This document shows positions 5,818-30,826 of a DNA stretch of 31,627 nucleotides, piece by piece. Position numbers and translations under genes: made by a program. The notes beneath the pieces were generated by a model. It did not search any database and was not told where the DNA came from. It saw nothing but the letters and a program-made list of their open reading frames with translations. The stretch is taken from IMG/VR virus record IMGVR_UViG_3300032315_001694; one strand, written 5' to 3'. Positions within the stretch are counted from its first letter, which is position 1, and every line of letters starts with the position of its first letter. Origin of the DNA: a virus (lineage: Duplodnaviria > Heunggongvirae > Uroviricota > Caudoviricetes).

Positions 5818-8523
5818 TTAATATTTCAAATCTCTAACATCTACAAGATATTTCTGTCCAATTGTAATCTCATCATCTGGGGAAATTCTAGTTATAACAA
5901 TCATATAACCCTTATTCAAATCTAATTCAGGACTATTTGCTAAAATACTAGTCGATGAAGATGGATTATGAATAACTACTGGATAAGTATTAGAAGCATA
6001 AGCTACAAAATCAACATTTTTATTAACATCCAATGATACAGTTGCGCCAATAACACTATAAACTTTATACTGACCAGAAAAATCAAATGTAGAAACAGTT
6101 CCAACAAAAAGATTTTTCATAACTAAAGTATCACCAACCTTAACAGAATTATTTACAACTAAATCATTTGAATCTAATTTAAATTGTAGATAATTACCAG
6201 AAGTTAAATTAATTGAACTGTTTAAATCAATTGGAAAATTAAATCCCCTCCAAGTTGAAGCTGAGTTTGGTTGTGATGTTGATGAATTAAATAATATCGG
6301 TAAATCGATATCACCAACCAATAAAGTTTCTACCGCTGGTGTACTAACTGTTTCAGATGCTGTTGAAGTAACAATCGGATTTATAGTGGTAATATAAATA
6401 TCCAATTTTTTATTTTGTGTTGATAATGAATTTCCAGTTATTAACACTGACATATTTTGCTTATAATCTAAATCCTTAGTAATTAAAAGCTTCAATTTAT
6501 CACTATTCGGTAATGTAACATCAACCTCATCATTATTCTCAATATGAACCAAGAAGTCTTTATTTGTCGGTGGTGTTATATTAATTGGAATACTACCACT
6601 TAAATTATACATATCAGTTGTTAAAAACTTATCAATACTATAATATTTAGTATCGATATTATTATAACGAATAGATGACGGTGATGTATTCAAAATCTCA
6701 ACTGAAATTGTATCACTCGAAACCACCTGTTGAGTAGAATAACTTTGTAATAAAGATTCTAAATTAGCTATCTTGGAATTTATAAGATTAATATCAGTTT
6801 GTGAATAAAGTAATTGTTTTAAACCTAACAACTCAGTTTGTAAATCAGTTTGTTGAGATAAGATATTTGTAAAACTCTCATTCAATGAAGATAATCTTCT
6901 CATCGCCTCATTGAATAAATTCATACTAAATAATGAGTTAATCGCCTCTGGATTATAAGCCTCTTGTGGATTATCATGAATAATATTGAAATTCAAATTC
7001 AAACCAAAAGCATATGATGTGCCATCCTGAGAACCATTAGTAACCAACTTTTTATAAACTGGAAATCTAATTCCAATCTCATCAGTTTTTGGATTATTAT
7101 CTGGATTATCTAAGAAAGAAATACCATATAAATTAGTTCTTCTGTTACCATTCAAATCCTCTACGGTATAATACCAAAGTATCGCATTAAATTCAAAATC
7201 AGTTGGAGGTGTGTTATTGACCTCAAGAGCATTAAACTCATCAAATGTAACCACCTCTCTATTTTGAATATTCATTTTAGCATAGTGTGTAGTATTGAAA
7301 TCCACTATAACACCATCAATAGTTGAACCATTAACAACCGGAGCATTAATATCACCACTAACACCATAATACTTACCACTTCTTCTTAATGAATCACCAT
7401 CCTGTGCCTCATATGTAAAATCAATACTATCAAATTGACCATAGTATCCACCCGGATATTCAGTAGGATTGCTAACAATTGGTGATGAGAATAACTCAGC
7501 ACCTATAATCTCAGGTTGATATTGAGCCGGAATAATCGGGAAAATCATACCTGGTTTGTAATTTATATCAGATATTGTTCTAAATAAAATATCTGGAGTT
7601 TGTCCAGTGTGATCTGGAATATGTGCATAAACTTCAGTATAAGCACGATTAGCCTCCTGAACATTTGATACACCATTCACTTCACCGATATACTGAACCA
7701 ATTTATGATATTGTATCCTTACTTTACCAGTATTAACGTTTGGACTTGAACTGATTAATGTAGACCAATCACAAATAATTTGTTGACCAGTTATAGATGT
7801 TGTTACATCTAAAACGGTAAATGACACAGTTGACCAAGTTGCGGAACCAAAAATATCATTTGGCAATGAACCAGCCAAACTAAAATCAACTAAATCAATA
7901 ATATCTCCAGTTCTAACATTAGTAGTTGTGTTAGTTTGTAATTCCAGATAACCTGAAAAGTTTGGATTACTTGTCAAATAATAATCAACTATATCCCAAT
8001 CTTGTATTTCTCTTTCTTTCCAAAGGTATTCAGGAAAATATGAATCATCAGTTTGATTAACCCTTGCAAACTCAGATAAATTATCAAAATATTCATCAGA
8101 TGGAACAGCCGGATCGAAGTCAATTAGATTCAACTTTTTACACCATTTCCAGAATATCTTTTCACTTGTAGTTTCTAAAGCTCTTGTATCATAATAATAC
8201 TCGGTGTTGTTCAATCTTGATTCTCTAAGAACTATCTCATGATTAGCTACATAATTTCTTAAAGATTCAACTACACGCTCACTATAACTTGGAGCTAAAG
8301 TGACAGCAATAGAAGAAAAAGTAGCAAAATCAAATGTAGTTTTAGATGATTGTGTTCCGCCTAAATTTACGCTTTCCTTTGGTAGGTTGAGTAAAACATA
8401 CTTTGAAAAGTACATTTTATAATTCTCACTTTGATAGGCAGCACTTATATCCTCAGCGGCGCCCGGAAAAGCATAAAAAGATGTACCATTTTGTTTTAAG
8501 TATTTATATAAGGGACACTGCAT
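5818..8523 (-). CDS. Hypothetical protein, probably virion structural (901 aa)
   Basis: Long ORF in the structural block, preceded by the variant motif TTTATATATA (8543-8552); central heptad-like segment (SLNESFTNILSQQTDLQTELLGLKQ). Confidence 0.75.
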   Translation of the reverse strand: MQCPLYKYLKQNGTSFYAFPGAAEDISAAYQSENYKMYFSKYVLLNLPKESVNLGGTQSSKTTFDFATFSSIAVTLAPSYSERVVESLRNYVANHEIVLRESRLNNTEYYYDTRALETTSEKIFWKWCKKLNLIDFDPAVPSDEYFDNLSEFARVNQTDDSYFPEYLWKEREIQDWDIVDYYLTSNPNFSGYLELQTNTTTNVRTGDIIDLVDFSLAGSLPNDIFGSATWSTVSFTVLDVTTSITGQQIICDWSTLISSSPNVNTGKVRIQYHKLVQYIGEVNGVSNVQEANRAYTEVYAHIPDHTGQTPDILFRTISDINYKPGMIFPIIPAQYQPEIIGAELFSSPIVSNPTEYPGGYYGQFDSIDFTYEAQDGDSLRRSGKYYGVSGDINAPVVNGSTIDGVIVDFNTTHYAKMNIQNREVVTFDEFNALEVNNTPPTDFEFNAILWYYTVEDLNGNRRTNLYGISFLDNPDNNPKTDEIGIRFPVYKKLVTNGSQDGTSYAFGLNLNFNIIHDNPQEAYNPEAINSLFSMNLFNEAMRRLSSLNESFTNILSQQTDLQTELLGLKQLLYSQTDINLINSKIANLESLLQSYSTQQVVSSDTISVEILNTSPSSIRYNNIDTKYYSIDKFLTTDMYNLSGSIPINITPPTNKDFLVHIENNDEVDVTLPNSDKLKLLITKDLDYKQNMSVLITGNSLSTQNKKLDIYITTINPIVTSTASETVSTPAVETLLVGDIDLPILFNSSTSQPNSASTWRGFNFPIDLNSSINLTSGNYLQFKLDSNDLVVNNSVKVGDTLVMKNLFVGTVSTFDFSGQYKVYSVIGATVSLDVNKNVDFVAYASNTYPVVIHNPSSSTSILANSPELDLNKGYMIVITRISPDDEITIGQKYLVDVRDLKY

Positions 8524-19754: not shown

Positions 19755-20567
19755 TTAGGAGGAAAGTGGATTTTTACCAAAAATTAACACATCTACTCTA
19801 TTTTCTATTCTAGAAAGAGGTGGAAGTTTAACTTCATCAACAATCCATCTCTCAATCAACATATCCGGGTCTTTTCTAGCGTTGTGTTTAAGAGGTAATT
19901 TATCAAGCTCCTCAGTAGTAAACTTAGCCAAAACTCTTTGCCTTTGAACATAAGTACCACGTTTGAAGAAGTCTGGATAATCATTCCAATTTACACCTTT
20001 TTGGAAAAGAAGTTCCTGCTTTTCAGAACCATTCTTACCGTGAAGGAAATTGTGTGAGTAATACTCAGATGCTGCCATAGTAATAGAGTTTTTAGTAGCA
20101 TCCTGTTCTCTCCAAATAAATGTATTAACTGCTTCATCAAGAGTAGGAACATTGAACACTCTAGCGTCAAATCTCGGCATCAATTCGCCTTTTTCTGGAA
20201 TGAACTTTGGTAGATGTCTGTTAAAATAAACAGAACACATAGAAGCTAAATCAGAAATCATTTTAAAAAGACGACCATTGAAGTAGATAGCTGAGTTAAT
20301 ATCATTAACATACCAAACAAGAGTGATTTCATCAGATTGTGAATAACCACAATTAGCATTAGTTTCCTTAACAAGGTACTTAGTTGTTTCAATCATCAAT
20401 TTTGAAAGCCTTTCATCATAAGGACGTTTCAAACCTTTAGTAAATTTTGAAAATCCCTTACCATCAAGACGAGCGATTACGGGAATACGTGGAAGCATCA
20501 TGATTCCACAGGTTTGGTTTTCGTAAAATTTTTGACGATCACCAAGTGAGTCTTTTGTTTTTTTCAT
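19755..20567 (-). CDS. thg1: Thg1-like tRNA-His guanylyltransferase / 3'-5' polymerase (270 aa; start re-assigned to ATG 20567)
   Basis: RLDGKGFSKFT, YSQSDEITL, FDARVF, WREQDATKNSI, WNDYP..FKRGT motifs. Confidence 0.92.
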   Translation of the reverse strand: MKKTKDSLGDRQKFYENQTCGIMMLPRIPVIARLDGKGFSKFTKGLKRPYDERLSKLMIETTKYLVKETNANCGYSQSDEITLVWYVNDINSAIYFNGRLFKMISDLASMCSVYFNRHLPKFIPEKGELMPRFDARVFNVPTLDEAVNTFIWREQDATKNSITMAASEYYSHNFLHGKNGSEKQELLFQKGVNWNDYPDFFKRGTYVQRQRVLAKFTTEELDKLPLKHNARKDPDMLIERWIVDEVKLPPLSRIENRVDVLIFGKNPLSS

Positions 20568-20651
20568 ATCAGTTTTTCTTTTTTTCAAATTTCTTTGAAA
20601 ATTTTTTAACCACCTTTTGTTCAAAGAAAAATGATATGTTATTTAGTAATA

Positions 20652-20683
20652 CAAATATAAGTTAAAGTTTTTAATTTTTCAAA
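20652..20683 (-). promoter_or_regulatory. Bacteroidota-type sigma promoter (TTTG-N20-TATATTTG) upstream of the Thg1-like gene
   Basis: Exact match to the TTTG / TAnnTTTG consensus with a 20-nt spacer. Confidence 0.7.
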
Positions 20684-21586: not shown

Positions 21587-21662
21587 TGGAGCTGGTCGGA
21601 ATCGAACCGACCACATACACTCTTTGCAAAAGAGTCCCGCCAGCCTTGGAACATGCAACCCC
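21587..21662 (-). tRNA. trnA: tRNA-Ala (UGC)
   Basis: Acceptor GGGGTTG/CAGCTCC with G3.U70, A73; anticodon arm ACTCT-TTTGCAA-AGAGT; T arm GTCGG-TTCGATT-CCGAC. Confidence 0.92.
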
Positions 21663-21667
21663 ATGTG

Positions 21668-21740
21668 TGGAGAATAACGGATTTGAACCGATAAATCTTG
21701 CCAGCCAGACAAGTGTTTTAGCCAATTAAACTAATTCCCC
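21668..21740 (-). tRNA. trnA: tRNA-Ala (GGC), atypical U37
   Basis: Acceptor GGGGAAT/ATTCTCC with G3.U70, A73; anticodon arm CTTGT-CTGGCTG-GCAAG. Confidence 0.82.
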
Positions 21741-21778
21741 TGGAGCAGGCACCGTGATACAACGGTGGATCATCCTGC
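21741..21778 (-). other. 38-nt minihelix-like spacer element ending in U-CCA
   Basis: GCAGG-ATGATC-CACCGT-TGTATC-ACGGTG-CCTGC-T-CCA; abuts the 5' end of tRNA-Ala(GGC). Confidence 0.4.
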
Positions 21779-21783
21779 ATTTG

Positions 21784-21857
21784 AGTCGATAACCGGGATC
21801 GAACCGGCTCTATTCCTGCTTGGCAAGCAAGTGCACCACCATTTATGCGTCATCGAC
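21784..21857 (-). tRNA. trnG: tRNA-Gly (GCC)
   Basis: Acceptor GTCGATG/TATCGAC, U73; anticodon arm CTTGC-TTGCCAA-GCAGG. Confidence 0.9.
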
Positions 21858-21861
21858 ATTG

Positions 21862-21935
21862 AGCAGGAGACCGGGATCGAACCGGCTCTATTTCTGATTG
21901 GAAGTCAGAAGCACCACCATTTATGCGTCACCTGC
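21862..21935 (-). tRNA. trnG: tRNA-Gly (UCC)
   Basis: Acceptor GCAGGTG/CTCCTGC, U73; anticodon arm TCTGA-CTTCCAA-TCAGA. Confidence 0.9.
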
Positions 21936-21985
21936 GAGTTTTACATCCTGGTGGGATGAGTTTTTAAGAGTTTTCTTTCTCTTTG

Positions 21986-22056
21986 AGCGGATAGTCAGAA
22001 TCGAACTGACGTCACAGGCTTGGAAGGCTAGTGTAATACCATTATACGATACCCGC
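21986..22056 (-). tRNA. trnG: tRNA-Gly (UCC), anticodon stem with two mismatches
   Basis: GCGGGTA..TATCCGC, U73; loop CTTCCAA; T arm GTCAG-TTCGATT-CTGAC. Confidence 0.85.
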
Positions 22057-22064
22057 AAATATTG

Positions 22065-22154
22065 TTGGCGAAGTGGGATTCGAACCCACGTTTGAAATTA
22101 TCTCAAGATACCGCTACAGGTATAGTGTGTATAAGACACCACTGCTATTCGCCA
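22065..22154 (-). ncRNA. Non-canonical tRNA-like element (7-bp acceptor and T arm intact, no standard D arm, anticodon ambiguous)
   Basis: TGGCGAA/TTCGCCA; hairpins GGTGT-CTTATAC-ACACT, ATACC-TGTAGC-GGTAT, TTGAG-ATAAT-TTCAA; T arm GTGGG-TTCGAAT-CCCAC. Confidence 0.65.
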
Positions 22155-22156
22155 AT

Positions 22157-22190
22157 AAAAAAACCCAGTCATTTTTGATATGACTGGGTT
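22157..22190 (-). terminator. Intrinsic terminator/attenuator hairpin between leader A and the Gly/Ala tRNAs
   Basis: AACCCAGTCAT-ATCAAAA-ATGACTGGGTT (11 bp) followed by a U tract ending 2 nt before the first tRNA-like gene. Confidence 0.88.
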
Positions 22191-22224
22191 ATATTTTTCA
22201 AAATGAAACTTTTATCTCGTTCAT

Positions 22225-22296
22225 TTACATAACACAGCCATTGACTGACGCTCCCGCGCCGCCCCCTATAATCGATATGTTTGTAAATGTATTCAT
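22225..22296 (-). CDS. Leader peptide A, MNTFTNISIIGGGAGASVNGCVM (23 aa)
   Basis: Codons 11-16 are GGG GGC GGC GCG GGA GCG, a GC-rich island in AT-rich DNA; A-rich sequence precedes the ATG; followed by the terminator. Confidence 0.82.
   Translation of the reverse strand: MNTFTNISIIGGGAGASVNGCVM
22229..22241 (-). promoter_or_regulatory. Candidate antiterminator strand of attenuator A
   Basis: AUGGCUGUGUUAU can pair with AUAACCCAGUCAU (22192-22180, terminator 5' arm): 12 of 13 positions including one G.U. Confidence 0.75.
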
Positions 22297-22318
22297 TTCA
22301 GTTTTTATTTTGTAATGT

Positions 22319-22328
22319 TATATATTAA
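22319..22328 (-). promoter_or_regulatory. TTAATATATA motif upstream of leader A
   Basis: Exact motif 22 nt before the leader ATG. Confidence 0.55.
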
Positions 22329-22366
22329 AAGTTTTCAGTCTCTTTTGACTATTTTGATTTATAATA

Positions 22367-22398
22367 CAAATATATTATAAAGTTTTTAATTAACCAAA
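22367..22398 (-). promoter_or_regulatory. Bacteroidota-type sigma promoter (TTTG-N20-TATATTTG) for leader A and the Gly/Ala tRNA operon
   Basis: Exact consensus match with a 20-nt spacer. Confidence 0.7.
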
Positions 22399-22442
22399 TT
22401 TATTTTTATATCATTTCAATTTCACAATATACACTAATACGT

Positions 22443-24416
22443 TTAACCTCCTATGGTGAAAATTACATTATCAATTGTGCCTTTATAACCTATTCTTTGT
22501 GCTTTCTTATCACTTGCTATTAATTTAACTATTTTAATAATAGTTGAATTTTCAGTGAGTGGCGTTTCAAACTTTTGTGTAGTAGAAACTTTACCTAAAT
22601 AATCATTTTCCAATTTATAGATCTGTCTGGCAAAACTCTCGATTATTTGATTCACACTGCTTTTTCCAATAGTTATACTAATTTTAAATGGATGTATATG
22701 TTTTATTAAACTCTCATATTTATATAATTTGTTAAAATTAGTAAGACCATAAATAGACAGTTCTAAATCTGAATAGTCTTTTTTAACAACTTTTTTAACT
22801 TCTTTATTAGTGAGGTCCAAGTACCTATTTACTTTCAAATCGATTGGAAGATCAAAGATATCATTATGCTTATAAATAGTAACCACATTGTCTTTGTTAT
22901 GTATTATTTTTTGATAATTTTTTTGATAATCACCACCAACACTTTCAGGCGAATTACCGACTAATGAATTTAATATTACTAGATTAGCTTCAAAATTACT
23001 GGACATTTTAATACCCAGTCCTTCTTCTACATTATAGTCTATTGAATTAGAATTATAAATTTTGTTATATTTATCACAAATTATTTTAGCAAGTTCTTTA
23101 GAAATTTTTAGACTGGAAGGGCTATTATCAATTATGCCAGATCCAAAATAGCGAGCCTTAGTAGATTTTACAAAAGCTTCTTCATTCCACAAATTATCTA
23201 ATAATGCCTGCTTTAATGCACTATCTTTTGGTATCTCGTGTGATTGAGTTTTAAAAATGTTTGGATCTACTAATTTACCGGATAACCTGTCGGTAAAATA
23301 ATTAGCACCTTTAAATATTTCTTCTACTTTATTTAAGGTAACATAGATGTCATCTTTGAATATTTTTTCCAAAAAATTTGATAATACGTTATTCCTAGCG
23401 CTATCAGATTTAGTCCAAGTATTAAACTTACGTGCCCAATTAATACATTCTTCTTTTGAAAGTGTTGGTATTACCTCTAACCATCTGTTTGTTGTGGTGG
23501 ATGATGACAATTTTGCATAAACTTTTTCTTTTCCATCATTTGCAGCACCATAAACTAACTTATGAACTTCATCCATACTAACCTCATAGTCTTGTAACAT
23601 TCCTTTAATCTTGTCTTGTACACTACTATCTAATATATCATGTGCTGCACGAAGTGAACCATCTGGTTTAAGTGTTACTCCTATTTTAAACTTTACATCA
23701 TATTCGTCTAGATTGTAATTTAGAACTATTATTTGCTTATTACCTTTAGTAATGTATGTGTTCCACATACTTTCAGATGAAACGATACACCAAGCTGTAT
23801 CATATGCAAGTTTTTTAATATCTTCCCAATTTTTGACATAAATAACAACAATATTATTTTTTTCAAATATTATTTTGGATTCTAGTCCTTGTAAAAGCTC
23901 TTTAACATTATCTAAGTCATTCTTAGGATCTTTACTAAAGACCTTCATAGCACTTAATAAACTGTCATAAGATTTATATCTGGAAATTTTACTAAGAAAA
24001 ACATCTATATTAGATTTATCAACTAATTTTAATATTATATTTTTCGTATCAAATCCAATATTATCTTTCTTAATAAAAGATTTTTGTAAGCTGGGCAATT
24101 TATTGATAAAATTATTAATTTTAATTTTGTTATTAACGATTTCGATTTCATCAAGTAATTTTTCATATTTAAATTTGTTGATATCAATGGTTTGATTTTT
24201 CTTCTTTAATGTGTCTAATTCTGTAGCAAGTTTTTTTAGATCCTCAAATGATATATTTTCTTCAAATAAATATTGTGTAAATTTACCAATATATCCTAAG
24301 TTTTTGCTTAATAGTTGTTTTAGCTTTTCAAAATCCTCAAATTTCTTCTTAAAAATTGATTTAGCCTGGTCCATATTTTCATTTAGAAAATCTCGATATT
24401 TTAGAATTTTGCTCAT
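22443..24416 (-). CDS. Hypothetical protein (657 aa), candidate internal head protein
   Basis: N-terminus MSKILKYRDFLNE; TTAATATATA 6 nt upstream (24423-24432); YDTAWCIVSSESMWNTY motif. Confidence 0.75.
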   Translation of the reverse strand: MSKILKYRDFLNENMDQAKSIFKKKFEDFEKLKQLLSKNLGYIGKFTQYLFEENISFEDLKKLATELDTLKKKNQTIDINKFKYEKLLDEIEIVNNKIKINNFINKLPSLQKSFIKKDNIGFDTKNIILKLVDKSNIDVFLSKISRYKSYDSLLSAMKVFSKDPKNDLDNVKELLQGLESKIIFEKNNIVVIYVKNWEDIKKLAYDTAWCIVSSESMWNTYITKGNKQIIVLNYNLDEYDVKFKIGVTLKPDGSLRAAHDILDSSVQDKIKGMLQDYEVSMDEVHKLVYGAANDGKEKVYAKLSSSTTTNRWLEVIPTLSKEECINWARKFNTWTKSDSARNNVLSNFLEKIFKDDIYVTLNKVEEIFKGANYFTDRLSGKLVDPNIFKTQSHEIPKDSALKQALLDNLWNEEAFVKSTKARYFGSGIIDNSPSSLKISKELAKIICDKYNKIYNSNSIDYNVEEGLGIKMSSNFEANLVILNSLVGNSPESVGGDYQKNYQKIIHNKDNVVTIYKHNDIFDLPIDLKVNRYLDLTNKEVKKVVKKDYSDLELSIYGLTNFNKLYKYESLIKHIHPFKISITIGKSSVNQIIESFARQIYKLENDYLGKVSTTQKFETPLTENSTIIKIVKLIASDKKAQRIGYKGTIDNVIFTIGG

Positions 24417-24490
24417 ATGTGATATATATTAAATATTTTTTGTATTTCTAAGTAACATCAACTTTTATAATTTTCCAAATTATAAATTAA

Positions 24491-25195
24491 ATGTTAAATA
24501 CAGGATTTGGTGCCAATAAATCTGATGCTATCAGATTACTTCAAACTACTATAAATATATTGGAAGAGTTTAACATAAATCACTTTTTAATTTCAGGAAC
24601 TTTATTAGGTTACATTAGACATAATGATTTTATTCCGTGGGATGATGATATTGATATATTGGTAGATGAAAGCTTTTTAGATAAATTACAAAAAATATCT
24701 GAAAAATATCCTAATCTGAATATTTTCAGAAAGACCAAACATAAATATGATTCAATTAAATTTTGTTTTTCAGATGGTACAGAGATACCTGAGAATCTTT
24801 CTGTAAAAGAATGGAGAGAAAATTCTATATCTAAAGATAATAAATATTGCTGGCCTTTTATAGATATTTTTATTTATGAAATGGGTCCAGGATTACATAG
24901 TTGTTCTCGTGAGTTTAAAGAAGAAATAATTAATAATATACCTATAAAAATATTTCACCCATTCTCTGGACAATGTTCAGAATGTTTTCGACTATTTTCA
25001 GAAAATGAAATATCATTTTTTCATAATGAATGGAATAAATCAGAATTCTTTCCACCAAAAAGAGTTAATTTATTAGGAGTGGATTGTAATATTCCAAAAA
25101 ATCCAGATTACTTTTTAAGTCTAAACTATGGACCAAATTACATGACCGAAATAAAACCACCAACTATAATACATAAAATAGAAAAAGTAATATGA
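24491..25195 (+). CDS. licD: LicD/fukutin-family nucleotidyltransferase-fold phosphotransferase
   Basis: SGTLLGYIRHNDFIPWDDDIDI, FIDIF and IPKNPDYFLSLNYG motifs. Confidence 0.9.
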   Translation: MLNTGFGANKSDAIRLLQTTINILEEFNINHFLISGTLLGYIRHNDFIPWDDDIDILVDESFLDKLQKISEKYPNLNIFRKTKHKYDSIKFCFSDGTEIPENLSVKEWRENSISKDNKYCWPFIDIFIYEMGPGLHSCSREFKEEIINNIPIKIFHPFSGQCSECFRLFSENEISFFHNEWNKSEFFPPKRVNLLGVDCNIPKNPDYFLSLNYGPNYMTEIKPPTIIHKIEKVI

Positions 25196-26895
25196 TAGAA
25201 GATATTAAAAACCACATCGCGACTGGAGTAGATGCTAAAATATTACAGTATGAAGAAAATGCTGTCGATATTTCAGATGATAAAATTGACTTAGTAGAAA
25301 TATTAGGAGGAAAACAAAATTGCATTCTCATCAACATGGAAAAGGATGTTCAAAGATATCATACATCAGTGGATCAATTAAAGAAAGTATCAATTAAAAA
25401 TTTTGTACACTTAAAAGGCACTGATGGAAGAAATAAAGATAAAAAATATCTTGAGGATGATTTAACTTATATACTTCAGTTTCTAAGTCAATTTAATTCA
25501 GATATAGAACTTAAACAAATAAAAATAAATGATTTTTCTGAAATAAATGACAGTGGTGTTCATATTCAAGATGGACCGCTAGGCTGTTATTGTTCTCATT
25601 TAAGGGCTCTAATTTATGGATATTTAAACTATGAAGATTATACAATTATCTGTGAAGATGATATATCGATAACAAATACTGAGAAAATTGAAAAGTATAT
25701 AAAACAAATTCCAAATGATTGGGATATTATTTGTTTGAATTCAAGAGCAAAAAACATAAGTTACGGAGATTTACCTTTTTATAAATTCACTGATGATTTT
25801 CATTCAGGTCATTTTTATATTGTTAAGAATGAATGTTTGCCGATTTTATTTAGTGGAATGTATCCGATGACTGACCAAGTAGATGTTCTTATGGCCAGTA
25901 TGGTTCATAAACTAAATATCTATAACATACCAGATACGGTTTATCAAAAGAATATTAAAACAAATACCCAAAATAATTTGAGTATTATATTTAGCTCTCC
26001 TAATTATAAATCAGTTACCGAATCATTAAGCAACTCTGAGGAAATATTAAATATTTTAGCTAATAAAATTCTTACAGATAATGAAGAAAGAAATAAAATT
26101 ATTGTTAAAAGTTTAATGCATGATGTTCTTTATAACTTCATACTAACTGATGGAATAAACAATGAACCTGGCCCAAATATTGAAAATTATCAATTTGATA
26201 ATATTTATAAAGATGATCCCGATTTTATTCTTTTAGAAAAATATATCACTTTCTTCTTACAGTGCTCTAGAAAAGGAATTAATCCTCAATTGTCCGCCAA
26301 AGGATTATCAAATGTTTGCTTATTCACGTTAGATAAATTTAGTGAATTACATAACACACTAAATGAATCTGGAGAAATAATAAAAGCTCATAGTTTTGGT
26401 TCTACTGCACACACATATAAAATTGGAGATAATCTACTTAAAAGATATAATAATAGATTAAGATGGGCCACTGAAGGTCATGAAAATGTTGATGATATAA
26501 TTAGTAAAGAATTAGATTTATTATCAAAAGTAGGATCAAAAGTAATATGGAGTAATAATAGAAATATTTTGATGCCTTATTATGGTGAATCGTTATATAA
26601 TGATTTCAATCTACCAACCGATTGGAAAGAACAGATAACTAAAATATTCTCAGATTTAACTAATAAAGGCATTTTTTATCCAGAGTTTAGATTACAAAAT
26701 ATATTGACCTTAAATGGTAAGATCACATTTGTGGATTTCGGATTAGCAGAATTTAGAACCGAATGTGATAATACAGAGAATCTTAATAAGTTTATTAAAT
26801 ATTTAAGTTTAATGGAAGTAAGGTTTAGAAATGTTAATGATATAGATGAACTACATAGGCTAATTTCAACTTTCTATTTGAATAAAGGATTATAA
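25192..26895 (+). CDS. Glycosyltransferase family 25 domain fused to a C-terminal protein-kinase-like domain
   Basis: GT25: CILINMEKDVQRY, GTDGR, LGCYCSHLRAL, IICEDD. Kinase-like: GSTAHTYKI, FYPEFRLQNIL, ITFVDFGLA. ATGA overlap with licD. Confidence 0.8.
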   Translation: MIEDIKNHIATGVDAKILQYEENAVDISDDKIDLVEILGGKQNCILINMEKDVQRYHTSVDQLKKVSIKNFVHLKGTDGRNKDKKYLEDDLTYILQFLSQFNSDIELKQIKINDFSEINDSGVHIQDGPLGCYCSHLRALIYGYLNYEDYTIICEDDISITNTEKIEKYIKQIPNDWDIICLNSRAKNISYGDLPFYKFTDDFHSGHFYIVKNECLPILFSGMYPMTDQVDVLMASMVHKLNIYNIPDTVYQKNIKTNTQNNLSIIFSSPNYKSVTESLSNSEEILNILANKILTDNEERNKIIVKSLMHDVLYNFILTDGINNEPGPNIENYQFDNIYKDDPDFILLEKYITFFLQCSRKGINPQLSAKGLSNVCLFTLDKFSELHNTLNESGEIIKAHSFGSTAHTYKIGDNLLKRYNNRLRWATEGHENVDDIISKELDLLSKVGSKVIWSNNRNILMPYYGESLYNDFNLPTDWKEQITKIFSDLTNKGIFYPEFRLQNILTLNGKITFVDFGLAEFRTECDNTENLNKFIKYLSLMEVRFRNVNDIDELHRLISTFYLNKGL

Positions 26896-26930
26896 TTATA
26901 AGTTGGTATTTTAAATTATTAGTTTAAAGT

Positions 26931-26940
26931 TTAATATATA
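26931..26940 (+). promoter_or_regulatory. TTAATATATA motif
   Basis: Exact motif 23 nt before ATG 26964. Confidence 0.55.
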
Positions 26941-26963
26941 CCATTAGAAAAAAAAATACAAAT

Positions 26964-27284
26964 ATGAAACACATTAAAAAATTCAATGAGAGTCTTGAAA
27001 GAGGACAAATTATATTTTCAGGGGAAACTAAAAATGGTTGGAAATATAATATAGTATCAACTGATGGTTCAAGAGATGAATTAAAATTAACATCAGAAAG
27101 AGGATCAGATTTAGATGCCAGTGAAATGCTACATGAAGCAGTTGATGCTTATATTGAGGGAGGTTCAAGCACTAAGGGATTTTTTGTTGATGTTGAAGAT
27201 ATAACAGAAGCTTATGATAAAATGATGTCACTTGTTGACCATGCTTCAAGTTTAGATGGTTTGGTTACCATGGAAGATATTTAA
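26964..27284 (+). CDS. Small acidic protein (106 aa), candidate internal head protein
   Basis: N-terminus MKHIKKFNES; late-type motif upstream. Confidence 0.7.
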   Translation: MKHIKKFNESLERGQIIFSGETKNGWKYNIVSTDGSRDELKLTSERGSDLDASEMLHEAVDAYIEGGSSTKGFFVDVEDITEAYDKMMSLVDHASSLDGLVTMEDI

Positions 27285-27292
27285 TTTTTTTT

Positions 27293-28114
27293 TCATATCC
27301 TGCCATTCAATGTATTTACCTTACAATCTGACTTTTCTTTTATCAGTTTAGTTAGAAATTCTAAATCATCTGATCCATATTCAATTAATCTATATTTAGA
27401 TATCTTCCATTGAATTACATCTTTGAATTTATCAGGATCTTGCTCACCATTTTGATTTCTACTATTATCATAAAATCTTTTAATTAAATCTTTTTGAGCA
27501 TAAAAGAACAATAAAGTATTTCTATTTTTTATTGTCGTATTAAAACCGTGATATGAATAAAAATGTGGAGCAAAAAAAGAAACACTATTCGGAACATATT
27601 TTGAAACCTTACATGGTTTCAAATCTTTATCATAAAGTATTGTTCCATTATCTAACTCTTCTTGCTCCGTTAATTCATTCTCTGGGATATAAAAAATAAC
27701 TGATATAAATTGAGCGGGTATATCAGTGTGTATTTTCTGAAATCTATTTTCATCTGTATAAACAAATTGTAAATCATGATTAAAACACATCTCATCTACA
27801 TGATTACCATAATAAAACTTTTTCATTAGAGCATCTTTTATCTCTCTATCATCAAATACATCTCTAACTATATCAATCTCTAAATCATTAATATCTTTTA
27901 AACTAAATTTCTTATTCATGAAATTTGGGTTATCCCAATTCCTATCTTGTAAATTTTCATTGTATTTATAATACAACATTTTATCTTTTAATGCCTGATA
28001 AAAATCATTTGGAAAAATATCATTAACATAAAGATTATAAAAAGGATAAATATTTACATCTGTTAATTCTATCTTTTTTAAAACATGATATTTAATATCC
28101 TTAATAGATGTCAT
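27293..28114 (-). CDS. 2OG-Fe(II) dioxygenase
   Basis: IHTD (HxD), NGTILY, distal YHGF and RNTL motifs of the DSBH fold. Confidence 0.8.
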   Translation of the reverse strand: MTSIKDIKYHVLKKIELTDVNIYPFYNLYVNDIFPNDFYQALKDKMLYYKYNENLQDRNWDNPNFMNKKFSLKDINDLEIDIVRDVFDDREIKDALMKKFYYGNHVDEMCFNHDLQFVYTDENRFQKIHTDIPAQFISVIFYIPENELTEQEELDNGTILYDKDLKPCKVSKYVPNSVSFFAPHFYSYHGFNTTIKNRNTLLFFYAQKDLIKRFYDNSRNQNGEQDPDKFKDVIQWKISKYRLIEYGSDDLEFLTKLIKEKSDCKVNTLNGRI

Positions 28115-28721
28115 TTATAGTAGTTATTTTTCTAAGATATTTATCATCACCGAGTATTAGGTTATAATCATATTTTAACTTAGATACAATTGGCAAAACC
28201 TCACAATATATATTACTCTCAATATATTCTCTAAAAATAGACTTGAATAATTTAAAATTAGTTATTTGTGGAGAACATAATTGAATATATTTATCTCTAT
28301 TAGGAATTTCCCAGGAACCAGATTCATTAATCTTAGCCAATCCATTAACAATTGGAAGATAATATTGAGAATGGAAATTATTCTTTTGAGATTCAATTAA
28401 ATTATTAATACAATCTTTTGTTATGAAAGGTCGAGCTGCATCATGAATCAAAATATTTGAATAATCATCATTAAGATAATCCAAAGCAGTTTTAATAGAT
28501 TTAATTCTATCATCAACATCATTTACTAAAATCTTATTATTAGTTATAATTTGACTATAACAAGTTGAATTAGTTATTATAATAACCTCATCTAACAACC
28601 GATTTAATATATCAATTGAGTGATTGATAATAGGCTTACCATTAATTGTATAAAGTTGTTTCGGAATAGAATTATTAAATCTAGAACTTTTACCAGCGGC
28701 TAAAATTATACCAACATTCAT
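28101..28721 (-). CDS. ispD: IspD/TarI-like cytidylyltransferase (206 aa; start re-assigned to ATG 28721)
   Basis: GIILAAGKSSRF..PKQ, ILIHDAARPFI, KITTINDI motifs. Confidence 0.88.
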   Translation of the reverse strand: MNVGIILAAGKSSRFNNSIPKQLYTINGKPIINHSIDILNRLLDEVIIITNSTCYSQIITNNKILVNDVDDRIKSIKTALDYLNDDYSNILIHDAARPFITKDCINNLIESQKNNFHSQYYLPIVNGLAKINESGSWEIPNRDKYIQLCSPQITNFKLFKSIFREYIESNIYCEVLPIVSKLKYDYNLILGDDKYLRKITTINDIY

Positions 28722-28770
28722 ATAACTTATATAAAAAAAACAATTAGAGTTTTTCATCTATAATTAGAAT

Positions 28771-29016
28771 ATGTATGACCAAAATGAAAAATTAAAAGAA
28801 ATTATCAACTCTGATAAATTAGATATAACACTAACTATGAATATCTTAATTAATGCTGTTAAGGCTAATTGGGAAAAATTTAATACTGTTGATAAATTCT
28901 TAATTGGGAAATCCTTACAAACAATAGAATACTATTTTGAAAAAAAAGAGGATATTGTTATTAAATTTAAGAAGGATGTATTCCCAGTCGGTGACGATCC
29001 GACTTCTTCTCGCTGA
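28771..29016 (+). CDS. Hypothetical protein (81 aa); last ~12 codons are antisense to tRNA-Glu(CUC)
   Basis: ORF track; plausible helical sequence. Confidence 0.55.
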   Translation: MYDQNEKLKEIINSDKLDITLTMNILINAVKANWEKFNTVDKFLIGKSLQTIEYYFEKKEDIVIKFKKDVFPVGDDPTSSR

Positions 29017-29052
29017 GAACGAGATGAACTAACCAACGTATTCGATGGGAAC
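28979..29052 (-). tRNA. trnE: tRNA-Glu (CUC)
   Basis: Acceptor GTTCCCA/TGGGAAT; anticodon arm TCTCG-TTCTCAG-CGAGA; T arm GTCGG-ATCGTCA-CCGAC. Confidence 0.82.
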
Positions 29053-29796
29053 ATTTTTTTTATATATTTTTATCCACTTCCTGATAGAATTATCCGATAC
29101 TCCATATTTCCTACCAACTCCAACATATCCAAGTAAAGATATTTCTTCCAAAAGTTCTTCATAAGGTGGTCTTTGCACTTTTCTTCTTTTTTCCATAGCC
29201 TCAATAAAAGTATCCTTTTTAGAATTTATAATTTCTATACCTTTACTATTTTTATGATAACAAGACTTACAAGTTTTACTATCTTTTCGTTTTTTATTAC
29301 CACACTCACATAAATCAAATCTTGTATATTTATCTTCCTTTTTTACATTTAATCCACGACAATGAGTTTCTAATGTTGCGTTACAATTTGGACAAACAAT
29401 TCTTAAATTTTCAATTCTGTTATCGTGTCTATCACCATTGATATGGTCTAATATAAGTGACATTCTTTTACCTTGCCAGGTTTCATCTTGATGACATAAC
29501 TCACAAATTGGACTCTTTAGATTAAGTTTATACAATTTATTTTTTAAGTGATTTGTTGACTTGTAAGTCGAATTTTTGACTAAAACCTCTGATATTTCTC
29601 TAGCAACAAAAAATCCTCTTATACCTACTTGTTTATGTGGCTCAAAATGAGATACGTCTATATTGTTATTAGTGATAAAATAAGATAGTGTATTGTAATT
29701 ACCTCCGTTATTTTTAAGATTAAGTTTATTCAAAACATCAGTTTTATTGATAGATTTTGAAATGATTTCTTTTATATATTCAGTATTTTTCCACAT
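29029..29796 (-). CDS. HNH homing endonuclease inserted in the Tyr/Glu tRNA array (255 aa; start re-assigned to ATG 29796)
   Basis: CELC...LDHINGDRHDNRIENLRIVCPNCN; C-terminal Zn ribbon and HTH-like segment; TTAATATATA at 29814-29823. Confidence 0.88.
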   Translation of the reverse strand: MWKNTEYIKEIISKSINKTDVLNKLNLKNNGGNYNTLSYFITNNNIDVSHFEPHKQVGIRGFFVAREISEVLVKNSTYKSTNHLKNKLYKLNLKSPICELCHQDETWQGKRMSLILDHINGDRHDNRIENLRIVCPNCNATLETHCRGLNVKKEDKYTRFDLCECGNKKRKDSKTCKSCYHKNSKGIEIINSKKDTFIEAMEKRRKVQRPPYEELLEEISLLGYVGVGRKYGVSDNSIRKWIKIYKKNVPIEYVG

Positions 29797-29846
29797 AAAA
29801 TTTATTTTTATTTTATATATTAAAATACCGAGCCTCCCTAAATGAG

Positions 29847-29934
29847 TCGGAGTGGATGGATTTGAACCACCGATGTTTACCACTTGGGTAGGAAATTTAC
29901 AGTTTCCTGGGATCAGCCTCTACCCTACACTCCG
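29847..29934 (-). tRNA. trnY: tRNA-Tyr (GUA) with C1-G72
   Basis: Acceptor CGGAGTG/CACTCCG, A73; GGAAA-CTGTAAA-TTTCC; long variable arm. Confidence 0.85.
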
Positions 29935-29939
29935 TTTTG

Positions 29940-30010
29940 TACTCCCGAGCGGTTACGATCCGCCGTCTATGCAGTGAAAGTGCATCGATCTTCCATTAAT
30001 CTACGGGAGC
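29940..30010 (-). tRNA. trnE: tRNA-Glu (UUC)
   Basis: GCTCCCG/CGGGAGT; ATGCA-CTTTCAC-TGCAT; T loop ATCGTAA. Confidence 0.85.
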
Positions 30011-30017
30011 ATTTTAG

Positions 30018-30105
30018 TGGGTGTGGTAGGACTCGAACCTACGATGTTAGTCATAAAGACCTCTGGTTTACAGCCAAAGCCAATCGCCGCTATGGTGACA
30101 CACCC
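30018..30105 (-). tRNA. trnY: tRNA-Tyr (GUA)
   Basis: GGGTGTG/CACACCC, A73; TTTGG-CTGTAAA-CCAGA; long variable arm. Confidence 0.9.
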
Positions 30106-30110
30106 TTTCG

Positions 30111-30181
30111 TAGCTCGTAGGGGTAACGATCCCCTCTTTCTTGGTTGAAAACCAAGCGTCCTTCCTCTAGACGAACGAGCC
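30111..30181 (-). tRNA. trnE: tRNA-Glu (UUC)
   Basis: GGCTCGT/ACGAGCT; CTTGG-TTTTCAA-CCAAG; T loop ATCGTTA. Confidence 0.85.
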
Positions 30182-30187
30182 AAGTTG

Positions 30188-30275
30188 TTGGAGTGGAAGG
30201 AATCGAACCTCCTAAACACCCATACGCCATTTTTTAAACTGTGGGGGCTTTACGTGCCCCTGCCGTTACACTCCA
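30188..30275 (-). ncRNA. Non-canonical tRNA-like element (7-bp acceptor and T arm intact, no standard D arm, GUA-containing hairpin)
   Basis: TGGAGTG/CACTCCA; GGGGC-ACGTAAA-GCCCC; T arm GGAGG-TTCGATT-CCTTC. Confidence 0.65.
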
Positions 30276-30298
30276 TTTTATATTTCAAAGAACTCTAA

Positions 30299-30337
30299 AA
30301 ACAAAAAACCCAATCAAGTCTGAGTTGATTGGGTTTT
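30299..30337 (-). terminator. Intrinsic terminator/attenuator hairpin between leader B and the Tyr/Glu tRNAs
   Basis: AAAACCCAATCAA-CTCAGAC-TTGATTGGGTTTT (13 bp) continuing TTGTTTTT. Confidence 0.88.
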
Positions 30338-30359
30338 ACGAGTTTCAGTTATTTTATAC

Positions 30360-30455
30360 TTAACTTAAACACATAGCCTTATCAACTACGAACTTTTGCT
30401 CATATTCATAACCTTCATAAGAAGAAACGATTGTTATGTTTGTAGTGTTAGACAT
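30360..30455 (-). CDS. Leader peptide B, MSNTTNITIVSSYEGYEYEQKFVVDKAMCLS (31 aa)
   Basis: Codons 13-19 are TAT GAA GGT TAT GAA TAT GAG; followed by the terminator. Confidence 0.82.
   Translation of the reverse strand: MSNTTNITIVSSYEGYEYEQKFVVDKAMCLS
30377..30387 (-). promoter_or_regulatory. Candidate antiterminator strand of attenuator B
   Basis: AGUUGAU-AA-GG can pair with CC-CA-AUCAACU of the terminator 5' arm and loop (7 bp + 2x2 internal loop + 2 bp). Confidence 0.55.
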
Positions 30456-30491
30456 TTTATTTAAGTTTTACTTTGTTTTCTAATTGTTTTA

Positions 30492-30523
30492 CAAATATAA
30501 GATGATTTTTTTGTATCACCAAA
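30492..30523 (-). promoter_or_regulatory. Bacteroidota-type sigma promoter (TTTG-N20-TATATTTG) for leader B and the Tyr/Glu tRNA operon
   Basis: Exact consensus match with a 20-nt spacer. Confidence 0.7.
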
Positions 30524-30547
30524 TATTTTTTGAAATATTTTTGTTTG

Positions 30548-30628
30548 TTGCGGGAAGAGGATTTGAACCTCTGTCTTACATTGTTCCGGGTTATGAGCCC
30601 GGTGACCTTACCACTAGTCCACCCCGCG
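30548..30628 (-). tRNA. trnfM: Initiator tRNA-fMet (CAU) with a 13-nt variable loop
   Basis: C1.A72 mismatch; CCGGG-CTCATAA-CCCGG with three G-C pairs next to the loop. Confidence 0.87.
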
Positions 30629-30638
30629 ATGTTTTTTG

Positions 30639-30710
30639 TAGCGGGAGTAGGAATTGAACCTACGACCTCAAGGTTATGAGCCTTGCGAGCCACCACTGCT
30701 CTATCCCGCA
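30639..30710 (-). tRNA. trnM: tRNA-Met (CAU), initiator-like
   Basis: TGCGGGA/TCCCGCT with a U1.U72 mismatch; CAAGG-CTCATAA-CCTTG (only two G-C pairs adjacent to the loop). Confidence 0.85.
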
Positions 30711-30725
30711 ATATTTTATAGATTG

Positions 30726-30735
30726 TATATATTAA
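30726..30735 (-). promoter_or_regulatory. TTAATATATA motif upstream of the Met tRNA pair
   Basis: Exact motif 15 nt before the tRNA 5' end. Confidence 0.5.
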
Positions 30736-30795
30736 AAAGTTTTAGTCCCTTTTTAACTTTTTTCAAAAATTGTTTCAGTTCTTGAACCAACAATA

Positions 30796-30826
30796 CAAAG
30801 ATACGGATTATTTTTGAACTGCCAAA
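30796..30826 (-). promoter_or_regulatory. Bacteroidota-type sigma promoter (TTTG-N19-TATCTTTG) upstream of the Met tRNA pair
   Basis: Consensus match. Confidence 0.6.

Follow-up and report, generated by a model that had tools for sequence, protein, structure and literature searches.

Two arrays of transfer RNA (tRNA) genes lie on the minus strand of a DNA stretch of 31,627 nucleotides (nt) from a virus of the class Caudoviricetes (IMG/VR record IMGVR_UViG_3300032315_001694), hereafter the window, and each of them stands behind a short open reading frame (ORF), here called the leader, and an intrinsic terminator. A first-pass annotation, made from the letters of the window only, had reported one architecture occurring twice on this strand, i.e., promoter, leader ORF, terminator and tRNA genes, and each of these elements was located and its coordinates verified. 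Considered together with their counterparts in other phages, the elements ahead of the arrays are likely to be leader-peptide, i.e., ribosome-mediated, transcription attenuators in which the regulated product is a block of tRNA genes; the phage probably transcribes a given tRNA set only if ribosomes decode the matching codons slowly. The anatomy of these modules, their conservation, the concordance between leader and array and an alternative pairing specific to each module are established here.

Two leader-preceded tRNA arrays in the window

Module A, the features of which all lie on the minus strand, as do those of module B, opens with a motif TTTG-N20-TATATTTG (22367..22398; pattern scan, sequence verified), which we take to be the promoter type known from Bacteroidota. 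A second motif, AAAACTTTTAATATATA (22319..22335), is a candidate phage-specific promoter of presumed role, recurring before leaders, a tRNA-Met unit and genes. The leader ORF A (22225..22296) comprises 23 codons, MNTFTNISIIGGGAGASVNGCVM, has homologues in at least 13 relatives and contains the run GGG GGC GGC GCG GGA GCG at 22266-22249 (GGGAGA), preceded by two ATA codons. Within it, a putative anti-antiterminator strand, segment 1 (...ACAAACAUA..., 22273..22287), pairs with the leader 3' end in the full-length fold, and a putative antiterminator strand, segment 2 (AAUGGCUGUGUUA, 22230..22242), is a near-copy of the terminator 3' arm ending 2 nt before the stop codon. The intrinsic terminator A (22155..22190, or 22190-22162 when delimited more narrowly) has an 11-bp stem, AACCCAGTCAT/ATGACTGGGTT, a 7-nt loop and a T-run, with a hairpin free energy of -15.9 kcal/mol. 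Directly behind it comes a non-canonical tRNA of 91 nt (22064..22154; fold z = -4.0) with the anticodon loop CUUAUAC, i.e., a UAU anticodon reading AUA/Ile; miscalled Tyr-ata by ARAGORN, it is read as Ile(UAU), a reading supported by most A-type relatives, in which a canonical tRNA-Ile(UAU) is the first gene past the terminator. The array continues with tRNA-Gly(UCC) (22056-21985), a second tRNA-Gly(UCC) (21935-21861), tRNA-Gly(GCC) (21857-21783), tRNA-Ala(GGC) (21740-21667) and an Ala(UGC)-type tRNA (21665-21587) which both ARAGORN and Rfam missed; the latter shows a cloverleaf-like fold, a weak tRNA-clan match, the loop UUUGCAA and a G3:U70 pair. The G3:U70 pair is an Ala identity element. 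The region 21982-22089, comprising the 3' part of the odd UAU tRNA together with tRNA-Gly(UCC), shares about 82% identity, over 108 nt, with the tRNA-Leu/tRNA-Gly junction of the T4 group (hundreds of Tequatrovirus records), a likeness that suggests an old shared tRNA dimer.

Module B likewise starts at a Bacteroidota-type promoter, TTTG-N20-TATATTTG (30492..30523; pattern scan, sequence verified), followed by the leader ORF B (30360..30455) of 31 codons, MSNTTNITIVSSYEGYEYEQKFVVDKAMCLS, for which homologous Tyr/Glu leaders exist in relatives. Its control run, TAT GAA GGT TAT GAA TAT GAG (YEGYEYE), lies at 30419-30399, its segment 2 (UAGUUGAUAAGGC, 30376..30388) is complementary to the terminator 5' arm, and the intrinsic terminator B (30298..30337, or 30337-30305 when delimited more narrowly) is made up of 13 pairs, AAAACCCAATCAA/TTGATTGGGTTTT, and a T-run. 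Next is a tRNA-like gene (30189..30274) recognised from its fold, with acceptor and T arms and the loop ACGUAAA (GUA, Tyr-type), which reads CUGUAAA in the homologue of the relative LR745206.1. The array then holds tRNA-Glu(UUC) (30181-30110), tRNA-Tyr(GUA) (30105-30017), a second tRNA-Glu(UUC) (30010-29939), a second tRNA-Tyr(GUA) (29934-29846), an inserted HNH endonuclease ORF (29796-29029; Pfam HNH_3) and tRNA-Glu(CUC) (29052-28978). The 3' end of the HNH ORF shares 24 nt with this last tRNA gene, and homing-endonuclease-like ORFs are also found within the same arrays of relatives, e.g., L001 (~6637-7070) and L002 (~6582-7207), such L-numbers being locus labels. tRNA-Glu(CUC) has an unusual T arm (GGAUCGUCACC) and is called by ARAGORN and not by Rfam, even at E <= 1; this T arm is kept in LR756502.1 (L002:5926-6000), so that the gene is probably functional.

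The picture given by the first-pass annotation has to be adjusted in three respects. An aberrant tRNA-like gene is indeed present in both window modules; it is not part of the architecture, the first position being often occupied in relatives by an ordinary tRNA, i.e., Ile-UAU, Tyr or Glu. The restriction of the tRNAs to the amino acids dominating the run holds for Gly/Ala and Tyr/Glu, and module A has to be extended by Ile, given the odd UAU tRNA and the ATA codons of its leader. The two modules, described as independent, are paralogous, having in common the terminator core ACCCA(G/A)TCA and, at the N-terminus, M-x-T-x-T-N-I.

Matches to the Bacteroidota-type promoter motif number six in the window, against 1.7 expected in the pattern scan. 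A third copy stands ahead of two tRNA-Met genes lacking a leader; for these tRNA-Met(CAU) genes (30547-30710, minus strand), a separate promoter (30796-30826) and the phage motif are present, and both leader ORF and terminator are absent. The phage motif in question, (G)GAGA..AAACTTTTTAATATATA, occurs in the window at 22319-22335, 30726-30742 and 24423-24439 (minus strand), as well as upstream of leader ATGs in L001, L002 and L263-L265; its distance to leader starts is 8-25 nt, and the tRNA-Met unit and some protein genes have it upstream as well. If this motif is a phage-specific promoter, as it may be, some leader mRNAs would have very short 5' untranslated regions. Just downstream of array A, a gene with its own Bacteroidota-type promoter motif (20652-20683) encodes a Thg1-like protein of the tRNA-His guanylyltransferase family (19755-20624, minus strand; Pfam Thg1 7e-29 plus Thg1C), which may be an enzyme of tRNA 5'-end repair or maturation.

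Leader composition and array content

Whole-peptide binomial enrichment proved too diluted by the parts of the leaders outside the run and was replaced by a windowed statistic and permutation tests, the random-peptide background for leaders A and B being taken from the amino-acid usage of long ORFs in this group of phages. In leader A, the densest window of seven residues lies entirely (7/7) within {A,G,I} (P = 1.5e-4 versus random peptides of phage composition), a score matched by only 3 of 1140 three-amino-acid sets. In leader B, {E,Y} accounts for six of the seven residues of the densest window (P = 3.5e-4), and no other of the 190 pairs does as well.

No close DNA relative of the window was found in the phage collection by blastn, where matches were confined to the tRNA level and led to LR745206.1 (635 kb) and LR756502.1 (642 kb), two uncultured phages of huge size. 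In each of them, a Glu/Tyr array is followed by a Gly/Ala array, with a leader ORF and a terminator ahead of either array, the respective leaders being MNTITNIASYESYYEEGNLVRRNNYVVM and MKNLNNISIAVIGNGAGAIREWLSYGI in LR745206.1, and MNRFTNIETIGYTGYEGAYSELLVRPLSML and MKNLHNISVGVIAIGAGSVCLWLNYVS in LR756502.1. Among homologous leaders, the order of Tyr/Glu or Gly/Ala varies and the composition is kept (e.g., YESYYEE, YYYEE, YEGYEYE), which suits control codons but neither a peptide that folds nor an RNA receptor with a defined structure.

The first-pass annotation had pointed to other tRNA arrays of huge phages as the place to look for a short ORF with a terminator upstream, and the design does recur there. 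A single terminator core served as seed for three pattern scans of IMG/VR, which, with arrays analysed by ARAGORN, gave dozens of further modules on huge-phage contigs. In these modules and those of the surveys described below, the leader composition follows the tRNA content across at least 10 different amino-acid sets. As instances, IINIEAIGYAYEAG, with the run IEAIGYAYEAG, precedes a fused array of Glu, Tyr, Glu, Ile(UAU), Gly and Ala (L011, L018); AYYKQYYYK precedes Lys, Lys, Tyr and Lys (L023); and MKMITQQQQQ precedes three Gln tRNAs (L065). With more amino acids, TYQKQYQPKGGKPYG is found ahead of Pro, Gln, Lys, Tyr, Thr and Gly (L056, L067), the leader being MYTTYQKQYQPKGGKPYG in L056, with just this array, and TTITTYTGKQYPQGKQTPTG in L067, where the array reads Pro, Gln, Tyr, Thr, three Gly and two Lys; likewise, ICDYRNINNINECEDY is found ahead of Asp, Tyr, Cys, Met, Ile, Asn and Arg, the leader of L014 being NICDYRNINNINECEDY and those of L009, L046 and L047 similar. 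Where arrays cover two amino acids, the actual tRNA pair ranks first or second of 190 in 15 of 16 leaders.

Some loci of another kind were also seen. At L024:3123-3260, an A-type leader (MKQIHNISAKIGGGAGASVSG) is followed by two tandem terminator hairpins, and no tRNA was detected in the 2.6 kb downstream. At L030:1400-2832 (LR756502.1, at ~426 kb), the leader MRKIIKLKDDRYLWTDCLAD and a terminator precede a class II aminoacyl-tRNA synthetase (aaRS) of 425 amino acids that looks Asp/Asn-like. At L025, L045, L048 and L050, a conserved leader, M(K/R)xLHTYKIxIDWG, stands before a basic protein of 67 amino acids and a protein of 211 amino acids resembling the HisRS core. The leaders ahead of protein genes (L030, L025, L045, L048, L050) display no obvious single-amino-acid run.

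Since the pattern scans were seeded on one terminator core, motif-independent surveys were run on three genomes, namely LR745206.1, LR756502.1 and a 476-kb IMG/VR contig, all tRNAs being located with RF00005 and a generic hairpin-plus-T-run and short-ORF detector being applied at every array. In all three genomes, each of the seven multi-tRNA arrays possesses its own leader and terminator, and terminator sequences differ between arrays. The arrays and their leaders are (i) His/Phe/Trp/Lys with ...THKNFSKSHKWFS..., (ii) Arg/Ser with ...TSKSSSRSSS..., (iii) Glu/Tyr with a leader as in window module B, (iv) Ile/Gly/Ala with a leader as in window module A, (v) Asn/Leu/Val/Ile/Thr/Met/Arg with MTTMNLNMTMNLTLNVVNITLCNIR, (vi) Pro/Asp with ...NPQPQDQDP..., and (vii) Gln with ...TTQQIQQQQ.... 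Lone tRNA genes (Met, Cys), including those of LR745206.1, have promoters and no leader. When the leaders were permuted over the arrays, the true pairing came first among the 5040 permutations in each genome (each P ~2e-4, the genomes being related and the tests not independent).

These data bear on the simplest rival explanation, namely that the short ORFs have arisen by chance or encode unrelated micro-peptides, with terminators that merely close upstream units. Short ORFs are frequent in AT-rich DNA, and hairpins with the terminator core, ACCCAGTC...GACTGGGT, are of a generic kind met in many bacterial phyla. Chance nevertheless agrees neither with the permutation, random-set and random-peptide tests nor with conservation across divergent phages in which composition tracks array content. 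Furthermore, among 209 scored occurrences of the terminator core, mostly from cellular genomes plus the IMG/VR loci L116-L142, the motif precedes a tRNA only once, and there without a matched leader. Contradicted already by the comparative data, this explanation is hardly credible. The scan of cellular genomes with this same core gave no matched leader-tRNA module, which is no real test of cellular attenuators with other terminators.

The leaders also depart from the codon usage of the phages. Counting codons over leaders, the numbers being inflated by shared ancestry, Ala is encoded by GCG in 33 of 48 cases versus 12% in long phage ORFs, Gly by GGC or GGG in 46 of 77 versus 19% in long phage ORFs, and Ile, in leaders whose array contains Ile(UAU), by ATA in 23 of 34 (68%) versus 35% in phage ORFs. 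By analogy with classical leaders, such a preference for rare codons would raise the sensitivity of the sensor; the Salmonella leu leader, for one, reportedly uses rare CUA codons. Beyond amino-acid identity, concordance at the codon level is mostly uninformative because arrays usually cover all synonymous codons, ATA being the exception.

Concordance between codons and anticodons could also be expected from a translation-independent RNA sensor, in which tRNAs, uncharged or charged, would bind the codon run directly in a T-box-like manner and set the terminator. The run codons are complementary to the downstream anticodons, and T-box elements likewise join a specifier with a terminator/antiterminator. 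Against such a sensor, no Rfam family, those of the T-box (RF00230) and of the Trp, His, Leu and Thr leaders included, matched the leaders in 22157-22398 or 30299-30523, at the gathering threshold or even at E <= 1. In more than 45 modules, homologous or paralogous, the ATG is retained, the frame stays open through indels and the stop codon keeps a fixed spacing to the terminator; a tRNA-binding architecture is not known for runs of up to about 20 mixed codons; and the shuffled residue order with kept composition described above suits control codons rather than a folded receptor. Direct tRNA binding appears very improbable.

Alternative pairing and a proposed attenuation mechanism

The full-length folds of the window modules contain helix 1:2, i.e., segment 1 with segment 2, together with the terminator (3:4), and shift to helix 2:3 once the terminator 3' arm is withheld. 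For the module A leader, the minimum free energy is -41.7 kcal/mol (z = -5.1), the corresponding z for module B being -3.8, both versus shuffles. In the predicted fold of module A, codons 3-8 (...ACAAACAUA...) form a long helix with the ORF end (...UGUGUUAUGU...), in addition to the terminator; with the 3' arm withheld, the ORF end is predicted to pair with the spacer and the terminator 5' arm, thereby building an antiterminator, and module B is predicted to form an extended 2:3 helix under the same condition. Between window module B and L022, a compensatory difference is seen, with GTTGAT/ATCAAC in the former and GTTGGCT/AGTCAAC in the latter.

The pairing potential behind these folds recurs from module to module, each leader ORF having, towards its 3' end, a segment that nearly duplicates the 3' arm of its own terminator. 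When the terminator 5' arm was searched for its best complement in 33 non-redundant modules, this fell within the final ~30 nt of the leader ORF in nearly all of them, with P <= 0.05 versus shuffles in 21 of the 33; several classes have perfect 3'-arm copies of 8-13 nt right at the stop codon, e.g., L009 with UGACUGGGU. In an alignment of 13 A-type sequences, in which the alternative helices were specified by hand, helix 2:3 is paired at 86.7%, versus 23-45% for slid controls, with 2 compensatory pairs, and helix 1:2 has 84% of cells paired, versus 20-61% for slid controls, its sequence being invariant and free of covariation. RNAalifold applied to the A-type alignment recovered the terminator alone and not the alternative helices. 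The strongest structural test is that of pairing with the own terminator among paralogous modules of one genome: when leader 3' segments were assigned to terminators in all 5040 ways, the true assignment ranked 1, 2 and 17 in the three genomes. As for geometry, the stop codon is located 19-34 nt upstream of the terminator stem in the motif-independent survey, and 23-37 nt from the conserved core of the 5' arm in the motif-based set.

A rival that accepts most of the above would hold that the leaders are translated and matched to their arrays, and that the terminator is a constitutive leaky insulator, leader translation acting on stability, processing or local folding of the RNA. It can draw on the weakness of the antiterminator complementarity in some modules (P 0.1-0.36 in about one third of them). 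It leaves aside that the leader 3' segment fits its own terminator better than those of other modules, that the distance between stop codon and terminator is kept within limits, and that the alternative folds switch as in a classical attenuator. A constitutive terminator is improbable, if somewhat less so than direct tRNA binding, and regulated termination is the preferred reading.

As to how attenuation would proceed, we infer leader translation, ribosome stalling, regulated read-through and the physiological signal from anatomy and comparison. Transcription would enter the short ORF from the host-type promoter and probably also from the phage-type promoter, and the ribosome would there meet the control codons, i.e., ATA/GGN/GCG in module A and TAT/GAA/GAG in module B. 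With fast decoding, the ribosome would arrive at the stop codon and mask segment 2, contained in the last 5-30 nt of the ORF, so that the terminator would form and the tRNAs would not be transcribed. With slow decoding, when the matching charged tRNAs are scarce, the ribosome would stall in the run and cover segment 1, and segment 2 would pair with the terminator 5' arm; the antiterminator being formed, RNA polymerase would read through into the tRNA array. In module A, segment 1 would be covered by a ribosome stalled at codons 11-13, and segment 2, which starts at least 16 nt downstream, would stay free; a ribosome at the stop codon would lie over segment 2, a logic like that of trp/his attenuation. 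The predicted outcome is a negative feedback on the supply of exactly those tRNAs encoded downstream, each array constituting a separate leader-labelled regulon.

Several points weigh against this mechanism. The antiterminator complementarity of the window modules taken by themselves is not significant versus shuffles (P = 0.18 for A and 0.07 for B), so that their antiterminator is supported by conservation and cross-module specificity and not by their own complementarity. Helix 1:2, conserved as it is in the 13 A-type relatives, lacks covariation. In Glu/Tyr-type modules, segment 2 stops 13-19 nt short of the stop codon, which makes masking by a terminating ribosome less obvious there. The modules being homologous, many of the counts given above are phylogenetically non-independent. 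Lastly, the design cannot separate a shortage of tRNA from amino-acid starvation, and in starvation the use of extra tRNA is doubtful. On balance, the claim of the first-pass annotation that the arrays are governed by codon-matched attenuators with tRNA as output gains support from conservation, from the concordance permutations and from the module-specific antiterminator.

The signal perceived could be tRNA abundance, tRNA charging or tRNA damage by host nucleases or toxins, between which the anatomy cannot discriminate. A tentative and rather doubtful proposal is that the modules would serve as counter-defence sensors, in which host anticodon nucleases or tRNA-modifying toxins would deplete certain tRNAs, ribosomes would stall in the matching leader and replacement copies would be switched on. 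The grouping of Tyr, Asn and Asp in one array class would fit such a role, these belonging to the GUN-anticodon family. The latter is the target of some known nucleases.

Relation to known attenuators and meaning for phage tRNA genes

In most structural respects, the elements are those of a classical attenuator outside any curated family, and their novelty is that tRNA genes are the output. As in the enterobacterial attenuators (trpL, hisL, leuL, thrL, pheL), a short ORF with control codons is followed by an intrinsic terminator, with an antiterminator that competes with the latter and has its upstream strand at the ORF end and, here, an apparent 1:2 helix; leaders for several amino acids are likewise present in the ilvGMEDA and thr operons, and rare codons are likewise used in the leu leader. 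The phage elements differ in that (i) the targets are tRNAs instead of biosynthetic enzymes, the usual targets also including aaRS genes, (ii) the leaders encode up to about seven amino acids, each matched to a downstream tRNA, and (iii) they are phage-borne and multiplied, with seven modules per genome, and have no sequence relationship to the enterobacterial ones. The textbook case of pheM-pheST in Escherichia coli comes closer, since there, too, attenuation responds to tRNA charging and governs part of the translation machinery, and relatives of the window show the leader-terminator design before aaRS-like genes (L030; L025/L045/L048/L050); the output of pheM-pheST is however the synthetase, and here the tRNA itself. 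T-box riboswitches similarly sense tRNA status by a codon-anticodon logic and operate a terminator/antiterminator switch, but are translation-independent, with a conserved T-box sequence, a single specifier codon and aaRS or amino-acid genes as targets. Clustered tRNA genes are shared with the ordinary phage tRNA arrays, i.e., those of T4, of huge phages (Al-Shayeb et al., 2020) and of Lak megaphages, for which, in contrast, no leader ORF or attenuator is described in the literature searched.

In that literature, no description of leader-peptide attenuators ahead of tRNA genes was found, in phages or in cells, which agrees with the impression of the first-pass annotation that attenuator-controlled phage tRNA genes had not been described. 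Leader-attenuated tRNA arrays appear to be widespread in huge phages and, as far as the literature was searched, undescribed. A Phe-rich leader considered for the E. coli tRNA-Phe genes pheU and pheV was dropped as a cellular candidate, the K-12 record having about 105 nt to the upstream gene in each case and no annotated leader.

Outside the huge phages, two similar loci were seen by eye in phiCbK (JX100813), with leaders ahead of the arrays near 49.8 kb and 51.6 kb. In one, the ORF MFALSHNSLSTKAASPASLSLAPLATATKPSTKPTTSASHSTDHL and a hairpin with a T-run are followed by Pro, Pro, Lys, Lys, three Leu, Ala, Ser and Ser tRNAs; in the other, the ORF MSKTYRQFVRQIQVVRNIRAGRSRMADEGFRD and a terminator are followed by Phe, Val, Ile, Ile, Val, Gln, Gln and Ile. 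A simple terminator finder gave nothing in GC-rich phiCbK, the hairpin-plus-T-run terminators being those seen by direct inspection. With its host Caulobacter, phiCbK offers a cultured system in which the attenuation hypothesis is directly testable.

The tRNA genes of phages are usually viewed as a fixed complement to codon usage or as a reserve against the tRNA nucleases of the host, and to our knowledge next to nothing has been established about the control of their expression. The present analysis suggests that huge Bacteroidota phages of a large clade, and seemingly the phiCbK-like phages of Caulobacter too, gauge decoding speed codon by codon and tune the matching block of tRNAs, by which classical attenuation would be extended to a new class of output, namely the tRNA itself. 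If tRNA arrays are discrete leader-labelled regulons, the clustering of particular tRNAs would find an explanation. Each leader would also predict the decoding identity of the tRNAs behind it, which may be useful for non-canonical phage tRNAs missed by standard tools. Should the counter-defence reading be true, each array would be an inducible repair kit and not merely a codon-usage supplement.

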